From contig JAQYVR010000249.1 in assembly GCA_030145395.1 (NCBI GenBank), forward strand, positions 1-57,474: 57,474 bases of DNA, written 5' to 3'. Shown here piece by piece: positions 19,209 to 52,782 of the stretch. Source of the stretch: Desulfobacteria bacterium (GTDB taxonomy: Bacteria > Desulfobacterota > Desulfobacteria > Desulfobacterales > C00003060). The notes beneath the pieces are model-generated. The model ran no database searches. It saw nothing but the letters and a program-made list of their open reading frames with translations, and was not told the DNA's origin. The stretch's first letter is position 1. Each line of letters begins with the position of its first letter. The position numbers were made by a program, and so were the translations under genes.

Positions 19209-19275
19209 TTGAAGATTCCCCGCCTTGAAGGACGGGAGTTCTGCCCTACGGCAGCACTTCGTGTGCGGGGAGCCC
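19209..19275. repeat. Two-hairpin REP-like element (family A copy)
   Basis: TTGAAGATTCCCCGCCTTGAAGGACGGGAGTTCTGCCCTACGGCAGCACTTCGTGTGCGGGGAGC is near-identical to the reverse complement of 49836..49908. Confidence 0.65.
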
Positions 19276-19595
19276 GGTCAAAGAGCGGGTGGTGAGAAAC
19301 CCCGAATCAGCGCCTATCTTAACCTACATGGCAGATTAGAGACGACTGTTTTCGGGTCAAGGGTTGCGGATTATCCCCTCCCTGGAGGCTTTTTCTATGT
19401 CCTAACCCCTCAAAACTTCCTTTTATCCAAGTGTATCTGTCTTCATCCGCGTGCTGTTTTGATCAATCTGCTTTGCCTTTCCCGGTCATTGTGCTAAATC
19501 ATCAAGTCTACAGTGCCCCGAAAGACCATACCCACATAAAGAATGGCAAGGAGTTACGTTTGGAACAAAACCTTGAGAAAGAACTAAGGGAAGCC

Positions 19596-48122: not shown

Positions 48123-48380
48123 TCACTCAAGGCTTTTCCGCTTCTTCGCGGCCTCTATCATCTCGATCAAAGTCGTCACTTTATCCTTGGGCGGTCGATT
48201 GAAGCAGCTGTCCCACTCTGTCTCGGTGAGCTTCTCTTTGAGATAGGCCTCAACAGCAAAGTGTGGTTGCCAACAGGTGAGAATACGCGGGCAGGGGAGA
48301 TCACCTCCCTCTTTCTGGCAGTAGGCAAAGGTTACCTCCCCCCCCAGCCTTGGACATCTGATCTCTAAATGGTCATACAT
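48123..48380 (-). CDS. Hypothetical small Cys-containing protein (85 aa)
   Basis: ORF with a CPRLGG...C...CPRILTC arrangement. No family recognised. Confidence 0.45.
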   Translation of the reverse strand: MYDHLEIRCPRLGGEVTFAYCQKEGGDLPCPRILTCWQPHFAVEAYLKEKLTETEWDSCFNRPPKDKVTTLIEMIEAAKKRKSLE

Positions 48381-48444: not shown

Positions 48445-49806
48445 CTACGGTTTGGGCAGCCCCTCTATCAATTTAAGAGATTTTTGGATTTCTTCCTCCG
48501 GAAGTTCGTACTTCGTGAGCTTACCCGAAAGGAAGTCGTCATAAGCTGCAAGATCGACCAATCCGTGGCCACTCCAGTTGAACAGGATAACCTTCTCTTT
48601 TCCCTCTTCTTTTGCACGCTCGGCTTCCTGAACAACGGCTGCGATCGCGTGGTTGGTTTCCGGTGCAGAGATATAGCCTTCGGTCCGAGCCCATTTTATG
48701 CCAGCATCAAATGTTTCCATCTGATCGTACGCTCTGGCCTCAACGATCTGCTCCTTGACCACATGGCTGAGGATAGGTGCCATTCCATGATACCTGAGGC
48801 CACCGGCATGGATCGGCGCGGGTACAAAATCGTGGCCCAGGGTGTACATAGCCAACAGCGGCGTCGTCTGAGCCGTATCCCCGAAATCGTAAGCAAAAGG
48901 CCCTCGCGTCATGGTTGGACATGACGTGGGCTCGGCAGCCACGATGGAGATATCCTTGCCATGGATCTTGTCACGCACGAACGGAAGACATAGCCCGGCA
49001 AAATTGCTGCCCCCGCCCGCGCAACCTATGACAACATCCGGATATACGCCGATCTTTTCCAGCTGCTTCTGGCACTCCAAACCAATTATGGTTTGGTGCA
49101 ACAGGACATGATTTAGAACGCTCCCCAGGGAATAGCGAGCAGTTTCATCCATTACGGCATCTTCAATCGCTTCACTGATAGCTATGCCGAGACTACCAGG
49201 CGAATTCGGATCTTGAGCCAGGATCTTTTTCCCTGCTTCTGTCTTGTCGCTTGGGCTCGGAATGCAGTTGGCGCCCCACGTATTCATCATCAAACGCCGG
49301 TAGGGTTTTTGCTCATAACTGACCTTTACCATGAAAACCCTGCATTCAAGGCCAAACATCTGACACGCCATGCTCAGGGCACTTCCCCACTGGCCTGCTC
49401 CAGTTTCAGTAGAAAGCCTCTTTATTCCAAAAGCTTTGTTGTAATACGCTTGGGCGATCGCCGTGTTTGGCTTGTGGGATCCGGGAGGGCTCACCCCTTC
49501 ATTCTTGTAGTATATTTTAACAGGGGCATCCAACAACTTCTCGAAGCTTCTGGCCCGGTGAAGCGGCGTGGGTCTCCACAGCAGGTACTTCTCCAGGACC
49601 TCCTCAGGAATGTCAATCCACCGCTCAGTGCTTACCTCCTGCTCTATGAGATTCATCGGGAAAACCGGCGCCAGATCATCAGGGCCGACAGGTTGCCCGG
49701 TCCCCGGGTGCAGCGGTGGGCTCATTGGCGTGGGCAAATCAGCCACGATATTGTACCACTGTTTCGGCATTTCACTTTCGTCTAGGAATACCTTCACCTG
49801 GTCCAT
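48445..49806 (-). CDS. trpB: TrpB2-type tryptophan synthase beta chain (PLP-dependent)
   Basis: 453 aa. The long TrpB2 N-terminus is [22 protein letters not shown]. The KNEG..P.GSHKPN lysine region and the GGGSNFAG motif are present. A strong SD (aaggagg) lies upstream. Confidence 0.9.
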
Positions 49807-49835
49807 AACATCTCCTCCTTATCAGGTTTTTTGAC

Positions 49836-49994
49836 CGGCTCGCTCCCCGCACACGAAGTGCTGCCGTAAGGCAGAACCCCCGTCCTTCAGGGCGGGGTCA
49901 AGGGGAGCTATACAAAAATGGCTATCTTCCTTACCGGGGCGCGAAGCACTGGCGCAAGCCAGAACCCCCGCCCTTCAGGGCGGGGAGGCTTCAC
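49836..49994. repeat. Two tandem two-hairpin REP-like elements (family A) inside the trpB2 5' leader
   Basis: 49836..49908 and 49933..49994. Each has a GAACCCCCG(Y)CCTTCAGGGCGGGG hairpin plus a second CTGCCGTAAGGCAG / CTGGCGCAAGCCAG hairpin. Confidence 0.65.
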
Positions 49995-50020
49995 AAAAAT
50001 AACAGTTCAGGGTGATCCTT

Positions 50021-50050
50021 AGAAAAAACGCCATGGGGGAAACCCATGGC
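50021..50050 (-). terminator. Intrinsic terminator (attenuator stem 3:4) upstream of trpB2
   Basis: The minus strand reads GCCAUGGG-UUUCC-CCCAUGGC followed by GUUUUUUCU. Confidence 0.7.
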
Positions 50051-50105
50051 ATTCTGTCTTGTGTTGAGAGCCATGGGAAGATTTTTCTTGCCCGCGGCTC
50101 ACCTT

Positions 50106-50195
50106 TCATTTCTCAGAATGGCATACCGGTGGGCAGGCTCCTTTGTCAGCCCACCACCACTCACACAAGGCTTTGTCCCCGCCGGCAAGAATCAT
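50106..50195 (-). CDS. Putative Trp leader peptide (29 aa, MILAGGDKALCEWWWADKGACPPVCHSEK)
   Basis: The ORF is below the ORF-track size cutoff. Three consecutive TGG codons lie at 50159..50151. It sits between a promoter-like TTGACA-17-TTATGT and the terminator, upstream of trpB2. The SD is weak. Confidence 0.6.
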   Translation of the reverse strand: MILAGGDKALCEWWWADKGACPPVCHSEK

Positions 50196-50339
50196 AACTA
50201 TCACTTATCGTTAGGTAATCTTTGATGTCACATAACAAAAAAGGTAAACACCTGTCAAGGCCAAAGTCATCGCCTTGCCAAGATGAAGATGGCATCTTTG
50301 CACAGAGACGACATTCCGCTGCATCAGCCCACTAAGCTT

Positions 50340-50594
50340 CTATGCAACTTTATAAACAGTATCGTTCTCTCGCACCCTATCTTTGACTTTAATCCCTATG
50401 AGATCTCCTGGTTTCGCCTCCTCGATGGACTCCATCTCGATCTGCATGCTAGTGATGGTCTCTTCAAAATCAGTCGTATGGCCCTTGAAGCGGAGTCTGT
50501 CCCCAACTCTAAGAACACCTGCCGTAACTTCGAGAGCCGCTACACTCGGTTTGGCAAAGAACTTTTGAACCCTCCCGACCTTTTCTTCTTCCAT
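50340..50594 (-). CDS. Small translation-elongation-factor-like (EF-Tu domain 2-like beta-barrel) protein
   Basis: 84 aa. GDRLRFKGHTTDFEETITSMQIEMESIEEAKPGDLIGIKV resembles the small EF-like beta-barrel protein family. Confidence 0.6.
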   Translation of the reverse strand: MEEEKVGRVQKFFAKPSVAALEVTAGVLRVGDRLRFKGHTTDFEETITSMQIEMESIEEAKPGDLIGIKVKDRVRENDTVYKVA

Positions 50595-50715
50595 TTCATG
50601 CCTCCCGGAGGTAGGTTAACATTTATGGCGTAATTTACATACACCGAACCCGTTTACAAAGCAACCGTGTTCTGGTAGAACACGCAAACTTCCTTAATAA
50701 TCGGAGGTATCCGCG

Positions 50716-52782
50716 TTGTCTTTCGGAACTGACAAGCCAAGCCTAAACAAATTCAAGAACTGCCTGTATCTGCTTATCGTGGGTCTTCTTATCCTCTTGG
50801 CATGTGCACCGGCACGCCGCCCGACCCCCCGGAAGCTGCCCATGTCGCCTGAGCTGACCCAGGCTTTGGACAGATTAGAAAAGGCAGACCATCTCTTTCA
50901 GAAGAACGCTTACCCAGAAGCGCTTGCCATCTATCAAAATCATCTAAAAGAGTTTCCAAGCAGTCCTCTGGCAGACACCGCCTTGATGAAAACCGGCACG
51001 GTTCACATAGCCATGGGAGACTACGGAGAAGCCAGAAAAGTATTTCACCGTCTGATCCGGCAGCATCCGAAAAGCCTACTTGTAGAAGATGCTAGATTCA
51101 ATGTCATACTAGCTTATCATAAGGAGGCAAATTATCGCGCCGCCGTCAACTATGCAAACTCAGTCTTGCGGTCTGCAAAAACGTCTCGCCAAAGGTCCCG
51201 CATCCACAATCTTATGGGATACAGCTATTCCGCTAGTGGGCAGTTTGAAGAAGGCATTAAGAGTTATATGAATGCCTATCGACTGGCCAAGTCTCAGGAA
51301 CGTGAAGAAATCCTAAGTAAAGTGAAGGAGGTTATCGCCTATCTGGAAGAACCAGAATTGAATTCGCTGCTTGGTGTGTATACAGACGGGATACTGGGGG
51401 GCTACTTGCGTCTTCAACTAGCTCGAGTGTATGCGTTGGAAGATCGCATTGAGCTGGCCATGAAGGTCCTGTCCGATTTTACTACCCGATTCCCGCACCA
51501 CGATGAATTTGAAACGGCCGCGGCCCTTATGGAGGAATTAAAGTCAGGTCCTCTGGTCGATACTTTCTCGATCGGCTGCATACTGCCACTAACCGGGTCT
51601 TATGGGACCTTTGGGAACCGAGCCCTTCTGGGCATCGAGCTTGCCCTGGATCAATTCAACACACGAACCGATGCCAACCCGATTCAATTGCTTATAAGGG
51701 ATTCTAAAGGGGACCCCAACGAAGCAGCCAGGGCTGTTGAGGACCTGGCTTTCAGGGATCGCGTAATAGGTATTATCGGGCCGATGATCACATCAGAGTC
51801 AGCCGCCGTCAGGGCTCAAGCCCTTAAGGTCCCCATAATAACGCTTACCCAGAAGCCGGATATTACTAAATTGGGAGACTGTGTTTTTCGAAACTTTCTG
51901 ACTTTCTCCTTGCAAGCAAAAGCGATCGCGGCTTATGCCGTCCAGGAACTGGGAATCAAGAAATTTGCCATCCTCTACCCTGAGGAACGGTATGGCATTT
52001 CCTTCATGAACAGATTCTGGGATGAGTTGATCGTCCATGATGCTAAGATAGTAGGCATTGAATCGTATGGCACGGACCAGACCGATTTTGCCGATGCTGT
52101 CAACAAATTAGTAGGTATGTACTATCCAAGACCTGAAGTACCCGAGGATGAAGAAGGCCTTGACGATCTGTCAGCCGCAGCAAGGGCTGAGTACCTCCTG
52201 ACAGATGTTCCGGGAGCTGCGGCGCCTCAGCCAGATACGATAGAATCCCTTTCACCCCTGGGTACAACCACACCGCCGGAAGAAGAGGAGAAAGAACCCA
52301 AGCCGATCGTTGATTTTGGAGCCGTCTTTATCCCGGACACTTTTGAGAAGGCCGGTCTTATTGCACCCCAGTTTCCGTATTATGACGTGGGTAATGTCCT
52401 TCTGCTCGGTACCAATCTGTGGCATTCGGACAAACTGATTCAAACGGCCCGACGCTATGTGCAAGGTGCAATTGTGCCCGATGGTTTTTTCCTGGAGAGT
52501 CCCTCACCCGCCGTCCAGGATTTTGTCATGAGGTTTGAGAAGATCTTCGGCAGCTCTCCGGGATTCTTGGAAGCCCAAGCCTTTGATGCGGCTTCTATTA
52601 TTTTTCAACTGACCAACCACCCCGACGTCCGGTCCAGGCGCACCATGAAGGAGGCTCTCCTGGGAGTCAAAGATTTTCCCGGAATGACCGGCCTCACCTC
52701 GTTTGACGAAACCGGGGATGTGGACAAACAGATATACCTTCTCAAGATAAAAGGACGCCGGTTTGTACAGATAAGACCCTAA
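50716..52782 (+). CDS. Lipoprotein-like TPR + type 1 periplasmic-binding-fold (LpoA / Leu-Ile-Val-binding-like) protein
   Basis: 688 aa, TTG start and a signal/lipobox-like LILLAC. N-terminal TPR units are followed by a PBP1 domain (IGCILPLTGSYGTFG). Confidence 0.65.
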   Translation: MSFGTDKPSLNKFKNCLYLLIVGLLILLACAPARRPTPRKLPMSPELTQALDRLEKADHLFQKNAYPEALAIYQNHLKEFPSSPLADTALMKTGTVHIAMGDYGEARKVFHRLIRQHPKSLLVEDARFNVILAYHKEANYRAAVNYANSVLRSAKTSRQRSRIHNLMGYSYSASGQFEEGIKSYMNAYRLAKSQEREEILSKVKEVIAYLEEPELNSLLGVYTDGILGGYLRLQLARVYALEDRIELAMKVLSDFTTRFPHHDEFETAAALMEELKSGPLVDTFSIGCILPLTGSYGTFGNRALLGIELALDQFNTRTDANPIQLLIRDSKGDPNEAARAVEDLAFRDRVIGIIGPMITSESAAVRAQALKVPIITLTQKPDITKLGDCVFRNFLTFSLQAKAIAAYAVQELGIKKFAILYPEERYGISFMNRFWDELIVHDAKIVGIESYGTDQTDFADAVNKLVGMYYPRPEVPEDEEGLDDLSAAARAEYLLTDVPGAAAPQPDTIESLSPLGTTTPPEEEEKEPKPIVDFGAVFIPDTFEKAGLIAPQFPYYDVGNVLLLGTNLWHSDKLIQTARRYVQGAIVPDGFFLESPSPAVQDFVMRFEKIFGSSPGFLEAQAFDAASIIFQLTNHPDVRSRRTMKEALLGVKDFPGMTGLTSFDETGDVDKQIYLLKIKGRRFVQIRP

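Follow-up and report, generated by a model that had tools for sequence, protein, structure and literature searches.

The stretch analysed here, a contig of 57,474 nucleotides (nt) from a Desulfobacteria bacterium (GenBank assembly GCA_030145395.1, contig JAQYVR010000249.1; hereafter the window), carries trpB2, a gene for a stand-alone TrpB-like pyridoxal phosphate (PLP) enzyme, and our results make it very probable that this gene is controlled by a ribosome-mediated leader-peptide transcription attenuator. The element would sense charged tRNA-Trp and would act on trpB2 and probably also on the small gene behind it; judging from the sequences compared below, we place the probability of this reading at about 0.87. 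The original prediction, made from the window alone, had proposed a Trp-Trp-Trp leader peptide followed by a terminator/antiterminator relay before trpB2, and this central claim gained support from conservation of the element in a family of related genomes, compensatory changes in its stems, the spacing of its parts, a conserved promoter, and local folding.

A conserved Trp-codon leader and its promoter

The whole locus lies on the minus strand, and positions 49700..50700 were re-read base by base, which showed the coordinates and sequences of the original prediction to be exact. The leader open reading frame (ORF), a trpL-like frame of 29 codons plus stop (MILAGGDKALCEWWWADKGACPPVCHSEK, 50106..50195), runs from an ATG at 50195 to a TGA at 50108..50106 and holds three consecutive regulatory codons, UGG UGG UGG (Trp-Trp-Trp, 50151..50159). 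The ORF list gives the same frame as 50106..50204, from an alternative upstream GTG at 50204. Both the 29-codon frame and its Trp codons had been predicted exactly as read, and homologous leaders were found before trpB2 in 21 other genomes. The leader is uncalled in annotation, as the JGI contig Ga0589501_6870853, which encodes an identical TrpB2, has no gene between the upstream gene and trpB2.

Our comparison set consisted of 80 genome loci with TrpB2 relatives (69-93% identical), all from metagenome-assembled genomes (MAGs) carrying labels such as Desulfobacteria, Desulfobacteraceae, Syntrophales and Smithella. Short ORFs with WW, WWW or WWWW were present within 500 nt upstream of trpB2 in 21 of the 80 loci, and all 21 were among the 30 closest (with peptides such as ...NNNWWWQALTVCP, ...CWWWQVL and ...GWWRQDIKGACPQGLPF). 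A short WWW frame occurred in this interval in the sense direction in 18 of the 30 closest loci compared with none of the 30 in the antisense direction, and was absent from all 45 remoter loci having at least 300 nt of upstream sequence. Within the window itself, only one of 3861 stop-to-stop frames of at most 60 amino acids (aa), counted on both strands and in all frames over its 57 kb, contained WWW, and this was the leader frame itself. These counts bear out the expectation that a triple Trp run at this place would hardly arise by chance. Across the loci, synteny extended only to trpB2 and the small ORF downstream, and the upstream gene was common only to the closest relative, L001, which suggests that the leader element travels with trpB2. 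As judged from these upstream regions, the leader ORF is a conserved feature of trpB2 rather than the tail of a preceding gene.

The leader is accompanied by a promoter-like sequence that is conserved in the same family. In the window, the -35 hexamer TTGACA (50253..50258) lies inside a block, TTTGGCCTTGACA, that is identical in L001, and an extended -10 element, TG-T-TATGTG (50229..50237), follows after an 18-nt spacer within the block TTTGTTATG, which is also kept in L001. A TTGAC-type hexamer occupied the same relative position in 20 of the 22 family loci, and in 20 of 22 the motif as a whole read TTGAC(A), 17-18 nt mostly ending in TGTG or TGT, then TAYGNN, placed 25-45 nt 5' of the leader start. 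The arrangement originally put forward, TTGACA-17 nt-TTATGT (50258..50253 and 50235..50230), was correct in sequence and in its conserved -35 hexamer, but the better-conserved -10 element is TGn plus TATGTG (50237..50229) with a spacer of 18 nt. These sequences fit a promoter of the extended -10 class that would be dedicated to the leader, its -35 hexamer being perfect and its -10 hexamer weak, and their conservation argues for a transcript beginning near 50222 (predicted start 50223..50221). A strict sigma-70 consensus scan of the region called no promoter at the leader, because its rule asks for A and T at positions 2 and 6, respectively, of the -10 hexamer, with which neither reading fully complies.

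This conservation also bears on the possibility of a chance resemblance, in which the hairpin at 50059..50021 would merely be the terminator of the upstream 84-aa gene, the WWW run an accident, and trpB2 transcribed from its own unregulated promoter. Such a view would draw on the terminator scan, which found no terminator between the stop of the upstream gene (50340) and the leader promoter and hairpin and which reported the stem, a palindrome that could act bidirectionally, on the plus strand. However, the leader, the W-run and the hairpins were present in 21 loci with different upstream neighbours, the promoter is conserved immediately 5' of the leader, the WWW frames were confined to the sense strand, and the promoter scan gave no promoter-like site between the terminator and trpB2. 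This explanation is effectively refuted.

Six RNA segments and five alternative helices

The leader RNA of the window can be divided into six segments. Segment A (UGGUGGUGGGCU, 50148..50159) forms the 5' arm of helix A:B in the minimum free energy (MFE) fold, with all three Trp codons inside. According to the folds and the family alignment, segment B (AGCCUGCCCACCG, 50127..50139) has two alternative partners, A and C, and contacts C through its core UGCCC (50135..50131) together with the ORF sequence that follows. In the folds, segment C (GGUGAGCCGCGGGCAAGA, 50086..50103) provides either the 5' arm of C:D (50100..50086) or the partner of B and the 3' end of the ORF, and segment D (UCUUCCCAUGGCUC, 50068..50081) either the 3' arm of C:D or, through its CCCAUGGC (50077..50070), the partner of E. 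Segment E (50043..50059) is the 5' arm of the terminator, with the core GCCAUGGG at 50050..50043. Segment F (50021..50037), its 3' arm and tail, comprises CCCAUGGC from 50037 and UUUUUU at 50028..50023. The terminator thus reads GCCAUGGG (50050..50043), a UUUCC loop, CCCAUGGC (50037..50030) and then G-UUUUUU-CU. Its sequence and U-tract were as predicted, but the stem is longer than had been described, with 13 contiguous pairs and three outer pairs across a 1x1 mismatch (50059..50021, -21.9 kcal/mol).

Without any masking, the MFE fold of the window leader consisted of the three hairpins A:B, C:D and E:F. In the first, UGGUGGUGGGCU is paired with AGCCUG(C)CCACCG (50159..50127); in the second, GAGCCG.GGG.AAGA with UCUUCCC.UGGCUC (50100..50068); and the third is the 13-bp terminator lengthened by A/U pairs (50059..50021). 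Helix energies were -17.9 kcal/mol for A:B, -18.6 for C:D, -21.9 for E:F (core -15.4) and -15.6 for D:E, the antiterminator, which consists of 8 bp between CCCAUGGC at 50077..50070 and GCCAUGGG at 50050..50043. The stem between B and C (50140..50085, -20.8 kcal/mol) is built in three tiers, UGCCC/GGGCA, CGGU/GCCG and UGCC/GGUG, and occupies the entire 5' arm of C:D (50103..50089). The 211-nt leader as a whole had an MFE of -76.7 kcal/mol (z = -3.65 versus dinucleotide shuffles), and none of 200 shuffles folded as well.

The same segments recur in the family alignment (A1), which contains 21 sequences from the W-run to the U-tract. Their consensus is UGG-UGG-UGG-CAG for A, (G)UCUGCCCA for B, GAGCCGUGGGCAGGGA for C, UCCCAUGGCUC for D, GCCAUGGG for E, and CCCAUGGC followed by a U-run for F. 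In the terminator-state helices (A:B, C:D and E:F), 92.4% of the alignment cells were paired compared with 35-54% when the 3' partners were slid, 13 pairs had changed on both sides, and none of 500 column shuffles reached the observed values. In the antiterminator-state helices (B:C and D:E), 94.1% of the cells were paired compared with 33-43% when slid. Helix by helix, A:B was 95% paired, with double changes in four of its seven pairs; B:C 96%, with three such pairs (e.g., C-G to U-A at columns 46/83); C:D 87-89%, with six; and E:F 97%, with three, while D:E was 92% paired, mostly via invariant columns. RNAalifold, run unguided, returned B:C and E:F. The alignment of trpB2 upstream regions that had been proposed as a check therefore shows the leader, the W-run, the terminator and the five alternative helices recurring in 21 other genomes, and the compensatory stem changes that it was expected to reveal are present. 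A relay of the type known from his leaders, with at least five alternating helices linking the codons to the terminator, is thus conserved in all five of its helices.

Most of the pairings read by eye from the window were recovered in this way. Segment 2 of the original prediction (CCCAUGGCUC, 50077..50068), thought to serve as an antiterminator by pairing with the terminator arm, corresponds to D:E, and its alternative pairing with segment 1 (GAGCCGCGGG, 50100..50091) corresponds to C:D; the pairing of GGUGGGC (50155..50149) with GCCCACC (50134..50128) is A:B of the MFE fold. The proposed register of B:C, GCCCACC with GGUGAGC (50103..50097), did not hold, as only 55% of the family cells were paired, and it was dropped in favour of CUGCCCA with UGGGCAG (96% of cells paired). 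In the window, this conserved register joins UGCCC (50135..50131) to GGGCA (50093..50089), and GGUGAGC is paired instead to the 3' portion of the leader ORF within the B..C stem. RNAalifold also proposed a pairing of the Trp codons with D; its columns are all invariant and the window duplex reaches only -11.8 kcal/mol, and we took it as probably a by-product of the conservation of G-rich and C-rich sequence.

The spacing of the elements is likewise conserved. Counted from the first base of the final Trp codon, B began after 15-20 nt in 20 of the 21 sequences (17 nt in the window). With a codon in the A site, the ribosome footprint extends about 12 nt further downstream, and a ribosome stalled at the last Trp codon would therefore cover A but just spare B. 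In 16 of 21 sequences the stop codon fell near the end of B, between 16 nt ahead of it and 4 nt beyond it, where a terminating ribosome would be expected to mask B, and the leader ORF extended 10-22 nt further past B in the window, L001, L009 and L024. A U-run followed the terminator stem in 20 of 21 aligned sequences, with only UUUCUU in L030. At the in-frame start with the best Shine-Dalgarno (SD) sequence, 9-14 codons preceded the W-run in 20 of 22 leaders; in the window, this criterion picks an internal TTG only three codons before the W-run, and the ATG at 50195 gives 12.

Folding of masked leaders and the proposed mechanism

The original prediction had left the on/off logic open and had suggested folding the leader with and without masked codons. 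In our local folds, which begin after the masked segment, excluding the 5' leader codons, and end at E, masking of A gave the B..C stem together with D:E (B to E, -36.4 kcal/mol), whereas masking of B gave C:D with E unpaired (C to E), leaving the terminator arm free. The logic thus resolves in these folds: with the Trp codons masked, the antiterminator D:E is formed, and with B masked, C:D is formed instead. Correspondingly, the probability of D:E in the window, for RNA folding up to E, was 0.99 with A masked (stalled ribosome) versus 0.03 with B masked. In the family, D:E exceeded 0.5 in 17 of 21 when stalled and fell below 0.5 in 16 of 21 when B was masked. The predicted fold therefore switches between a stalled ribosome and an absent or non-stalled one, a behaviour seen in silico only.

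From these elements, we infer translation of the leader, the order of folding and the dependence on Trp as follows. Transcription would proceed from the dedicated promoter TTGACA-18 nt-TGn-TATGTG, and the 29-codon leader would be translated while RNA polymerase advances and the RNA with segments A-F emerges. Without translation, A:B (the Trp codons with CUGCCCAC), C:D and E:F would form, and E:F followed by UUUUUU would act as an intrinsic terminator, stopping the transcript at about 50021. When Trp is plentiful, the ribosome would pass A, B and the 3' end of the ORF, keeping both B and this end single-stranded, upon which C:D and E:F would form and transcription would terminate. When Trp-tRNA is scarce, the ribosome would stall with a UGG codon in its A site and cover A, leaving free B, which begins 17 nt downstream. 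In this stalled state, B and the remaining untranslated part of the ORF would pair with C once C emerges, and D, left without a partner, would pair with E (CCCAUGGC with GCCAUGGG). F could then no longer terminate, leading to read-through into trpB2.

Peculiarities of the window copy and limits of the evidence

Several observations weigh against this reading, some of them concerning the family and others only the window. Among the close relatives, L002 and L003 (87-88% TrpB2 identity) are without the element. The statistical support is smaller than it appears, as the 21 sequences represent about 9-10 independent lineages with an effective sequence number of 3.6, and the shuffle statistics accordingly overstate the significance. 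Covariation in D:E is weak, with a double change in only one pair. Nearly invariant columns are to be expected here, since each of the two strands has two partners, C and E for D, and D and F for E. The antiterminator is also disrupted in L014, where it has two central mismatches although E:F has co-varied, and it is weakened in L029. Furthermore, when F was included, equilibrium folding gave the terminator wherever the ribosome mask was placed (W1, W3 or stop codon), with a P in the window of about 0.96, and the terminator prevailed in nearly all relatives as well. If the terminator is always the equilibrium structure, antitermination must be kinetic, as in classical attenuators, and would depend on the partner that E holds when F emerges.

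The 330 nt upstream of trpB2 in L002 and L003 contain no leader or terminator; they are AT-rich and hold short repeats, both inverted and tandem, such as gatgtgagatgtgagatgtgg, which pairs with cacatgtcacacatcccacatc. This composition suggests that the attenuator was replaced by another insertion in these two genomes. In L010-12, trpB2 closely follows another gene.

The window copy has weaknesses of its own. Its SD sequence upstream of the ATG at 50195 is only GUGAU, and that of L001 is also weak, whereas AGGA, GAGG or GGAG stands 5-12 nt before the start in most relatives; the weak GTGA noticed in the original prediction is therefore real. The window stop codon lies 22 nt past B, so that a terminating ribosome would overlap the base of C:D rather than B, and the off state would require the ribosome to have translated B early enough. 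The extra ORF sequence in the window and L001 is, however, part of the B-side strand of the B..C stem, and a ribosome that has moved past the Trp codons would still melt this stem. A window-specific U-to-C change (GCCGCGGG, C at 50094) introduces a mismatch into both B:C and C:D at a position that forms an A-U, G-U or U-A pair in 20 of 21 sequences. In addition, a 13-nt stretch of the leader spanning codons 2-6 (50191..50179) can pair with C (50097..50085) with a single mismatch, and this duplex (-22.7 kcal/mol, z = -5 versus shuffles) is absent from 20 relatives, with a weak signal in L007. If formed, it could free D and favour read-through irrespective of the ribosome position or of Trp. When the fold was cut before F with the full 5' end retained, E was indeed paired (D:E) in every ribosome state in the window, a result that we traced to this complementarity.

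Taken as a whole, these features could mean that the family is real and the window copy is degenerating or re-wired, with constitutive termination, constitutive read-through or a response to translation initiation in general instead of to Trp in particular. Such decay would account for SD duplexes that reach -4 to -8 kcal/mol in most relatives but are weak in the window and L001, for the lost pair at 50094, for the strong long-range duplex with C that holds truncated transcripts in D:E, for the ORF extended past B, and for a 165-nt repeat insertion after the terminator that L001 lacks. It agrees less well with the integrity of the six segments, the three Trp codons, the U-tract and the promoter, with the local switch of the window being the cleanest of the family, and with the full-length MFE fold, which retains A:B, C:D and E:F. 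The long-range duplex would also have to compete kinetically with a local hairpin that has a 4-nt loop, and the trpB2 gene remains intact, with high conservation (93% identity to L001). We therefore regard degeneration of this copy as improbable. The oddities of the window remove no defining element of the attenuator, but they leave a small chance of mis-tuning in this one copy.

Genes probably under control of the attenuator

The gene that follows the leader, trpB2 (48445..49821 including a strong ribosome-binding site, AAGGAGGAG, at 49821..49813; coding sequence start 49806), encodes a protein of 453 aa with a Pfam PALP domain. It scored 751.5 bits against NF009057 (cutoff 366) and 670.1 bits against TIGR01415 (trpB_rel; cutoff 518.85), compared with 144 bits against the canonical trpB model TIGR00263, far below its cutoff of 392. 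The gene is thus of the TrpB2 type (TIGR01415/PRK12391 TrpB-like PLP enzymes). The physiological role of the stand-alone TrpB2 is still debated, and an upstream attenuator that senses Trp-tRNA would provide regulatory evidence that, in this clade, the enzyme is produced when Trp is short.

An ORF of 85 aa with four cysteines (48126..48380) begins 64 nt downstream of trpB2 and, according to tblastn, lies downstream of trpB2 in 64 of the 80 loci. No terminator was seen on reading the 64-nt gap, and the ORF is probably co-transcribed with trpB2, which would place it under the same attenuator. A protein search gave 236 homologous proteins (cluster representatives); among the 120 listed, no Pfam domain was recorded, and the source names were all 'hypothetical protein'. 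Residues C9, C21, C30, C36, W37 and W56 are invariant. The protein itself gave no family match, the AlphaFold2 model reached a mean predicted local distance difference test (pLDDT) score of only 65, and Foldseek against the PDB returned nothing below E = 1. With its invariant cysteines and its position behind trpB2, the protein is a candidate partner of TrpB2, possibly a metal-binding one. If the attenuator acts as proposed, both TrpB2 and this small protein would belong to a tryptophan-starvation regulon.

Relation to known attenuators

The element did not correspond to any catalogued RNA or peptide family. A scan of 49000..51000 against Rfam 15 at E values up to 10 gave chance matches only (best DsrA, 20.6 bits versus a cutoff of 60), and seven related loci gave no gathering-level match, including to Trp_leader (RF00513). 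T-box families were absent from the Rfam scans of the window region and the seven relatives, and no (G/U)AG repeats of the kind bound by TRAP were evident on reading the sequence, of which no formal scan was made. Four leader peptides searched with hmmscan at E values up to 10 matched nothing in Pfam (Leader_Trp) or NCBIfam (trpL). This would make the element an uncatalogued family of a well-known kind of regulator, one that stands outside the enterobacterial Trp_leader sequence family and appears to work like it.

The resemblance to the E. coli trpL leader lies in its design, with a short ORF containing tandem Trp codons and an intrinsic terminator before the first structural gene, and in its presumed operation, with a mutually exclusive antiterminator that is selected by stalling at UGG and with termination in the absence of translation. 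The two differ in that there is no homology of sequence or structure, that E. coli has two Trp codons versus three here, and that four segments there contrast with six segments and three hairpins here. The terminating ribosome of E. coli masks segment 2 directly, whereas here it would mask B, two pairing steps away from the terminator. The E. coli leader regulates trpEDCBA, whereas the target here is a stand-alone trpB2 in MAGs of the Desulfobacterota/Syntrophales type. Another parallel is provided by the his leader of Salmonella and E. coli, in which segments A-F form A:B, C:D and E:F or alternatively B:C and D:E, and a ribosome stalled over A relays its effect to E:F. The relay of alternating helices follows the same logic in the window, although the his leader has seven His codons and an unrelated sequence, and the CCCAUGGC octamer shared by D and F and the near-identity of C and E are features of the window family.

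No Trp leader came up in the published literature searched, whether for trpB2 or for Desulfovibrio, Syntrophus or Deltaproteobacteria/Desulfobacterota, with the surveys of Vitreschak 2004 and Lopatovskaya 2010 (cited in PMC10272879) outside this comparison. Rodionov et al. 2004 (PMC545781), considered as a source for a delta-proteobacterial trp leader, was set aside, as that paper does not mention tryptophan. The nearest published description found is the prediction of candidate attenuators before trpB1EDGC and trpB2A in C. diphtheriae (Seliverstov et al. 2005, PMC1262725). The attenuators predicted there for actinobacteria (Corynebacterium, Streptomyces) share with the present one a leader with a Trp run outside the Gammaproteobacteria and triple-complementary terminator/antiterminator arms, but they belong to another phylum and their sequences are unrelated. 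Moreover, the 'trpB2' of C. diphtheriae is an operon-linked second trpB beside trpA, whereas the gene studied here is of the stand-alone TIGR01415 type without trpA.

The trpL leader of Sinorhizobium meliloti (rnTrpL/peTrpL) is likewise similar in layout, with a Trp-codon leader ORF and a terminator before a single trp gene, and is not homologous; it raises the question of whether the leader described here mainly yields a trans-acting product, either a small RNA released at the terminator or a functional peptide, with control in cis being secondary. Action in trans is known for terminated attenuator RNAs and for leader peptides (PMC6614838, PMC7298713), the peptides of the family share a WWWQ...CP motif, and the terminated RNA, of about 200 nt, would be stable. 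The conserved residues, however, are encoded by the very nucleotides that make up A (UGG-CAG) and B (GUC-UGC-CC), so that RNA pairing alone explains the motif, which sets this family apart from the S. meliloti case. The N-terminal residues and all residues after B are not conserved, and the frame after B shifts between the window and L001. Any such product would also add to attenuation in cis rather than replace it. We consider a primarily trans-acting role very unlikely.

Related leaders before trpE and a possible origin of the relay

A covariance model (R1) built from alignment A1 detected, among the 80 loci, only its training sequences, the divergent L028 and the doubtful L019, and it found no second copy in the window. 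R1 had no match in L002, L003, L010-12, L016, L021, L026 or L031-80. A metagenome scan with the pattern TGGTGGTGGCRG-N(5-14)-YCTGCC returned matches that, as listed, were mostly out of frame inside coding regions. Real leaders among the matches listed were confined to three loci, L140 (10316..10470, minus strand), L110 (386..590, minus strand) and L179 (1500..1800, plus strand), and all three precede TrpE-like genes. Pfam confirmed TrpE downstream of the leader in L140 (trpEGDC) and L110; for L179, the 50 residues of the downstream ORF that were tested gave no Pfam match, and the TrpE-like call rests on sequence reading alone. A promoter of textbook form, TTGACA-17-TATAAT, is also present in L179.

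The trpE-type leaders share the sensor module of the window family. Their peptides (…GWWWQTNTVCP…, …NNNWWWQAH and …RNWWWQAF) are accompanied by a UGGCAG-loop-CUGCC hairpin, and the module consists of 9-14 codons, UGG UGG UGG CAG, a short loop and GUCUGCC forming A:B. The R1 matches to L140 and L110 were weak but significant (E = 1e-6 to 2e-7). A terminator is present in all three, but the downstream hairpins differ in sequence from those of the trpB2 family, and the target is trpE instead of trpB2. The occurrence of the same leader module before trpE suggests that it serves Trp biosynthesis genes more widely in these bacteria.

The internal repetition of the trpB2 leader hinted at its origin. 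D and F carry the same octamer, CCCAUGGC, and C (GCCGYGGG) and E (GCCAUGGG) are near-identical. In L005 (165..316), L006 (2831..2981) and L014 (2777..2927), C:D is itself followed by UUUUUU, giving two tandem terminators. The shared octamer, the similarity of C and E and these additional U-runs together suggest a tandem duplication of the terminator hairpin, and the six-segment relay may thus have evolved from a four-segment attenuator.

Extending this reasoning, we tentatively propose, at somewhat less than even odds, a clade-wide and previously uncatalogued Trp attenuator family of the Syntrophales/Desulfobacteria type. It would combine a sensor common to trpE operons and trpB2 with a platform derived by duplication, and trpB2 and the 85-aa four-cysteine protein would form a starvation-induced unit for Trp synthesis or indole salvage. 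If confirmed, cataloguing the family would improve the annotation of Desulfobacterota and Syntrophales and flag a Trp-responsive regulon in mostly uncultured organisms, and the combination of terminator duplication with a sensor shared with trpE leaders would offer a compact example of how attenuators are assembled.

Neighbouring features

The gene upstream of the leader (50340..50594, minus strand) encodes a stand-alone protein of 84 aa that matches only domain 2 of EF-Tu and EF-G (Pfam PF03144, PF22042). It is syntenic only with L001, where its counterpart is 89% identical.

The insertion between the terminator and the trpB2 ribosome-binding site (49826..49990, minus strand; about 165 nt) consists of two tandem copies of a GC-rich hairpin repeat of about 70 nt, recognised as a direct repeat with 88-nt spacing; L001 lacks it at this place, and it is not part of the conserved attenuator. 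The repeat unit, CCCCGCCCTGAAGGRCGGGGGTTCTGCCTTACGGCAGCACTTCGTGTGCGGGGAGC..CCGGTCAAA, contains two internal hairpins, and a third copy lies in an intergenic position at about 19218..19290 on the plus strand. The element looks like a dispersed repeat of the repetitive extragenic palindromic (REP) or miniature inverted-repeat transposable element (MITE) kind.

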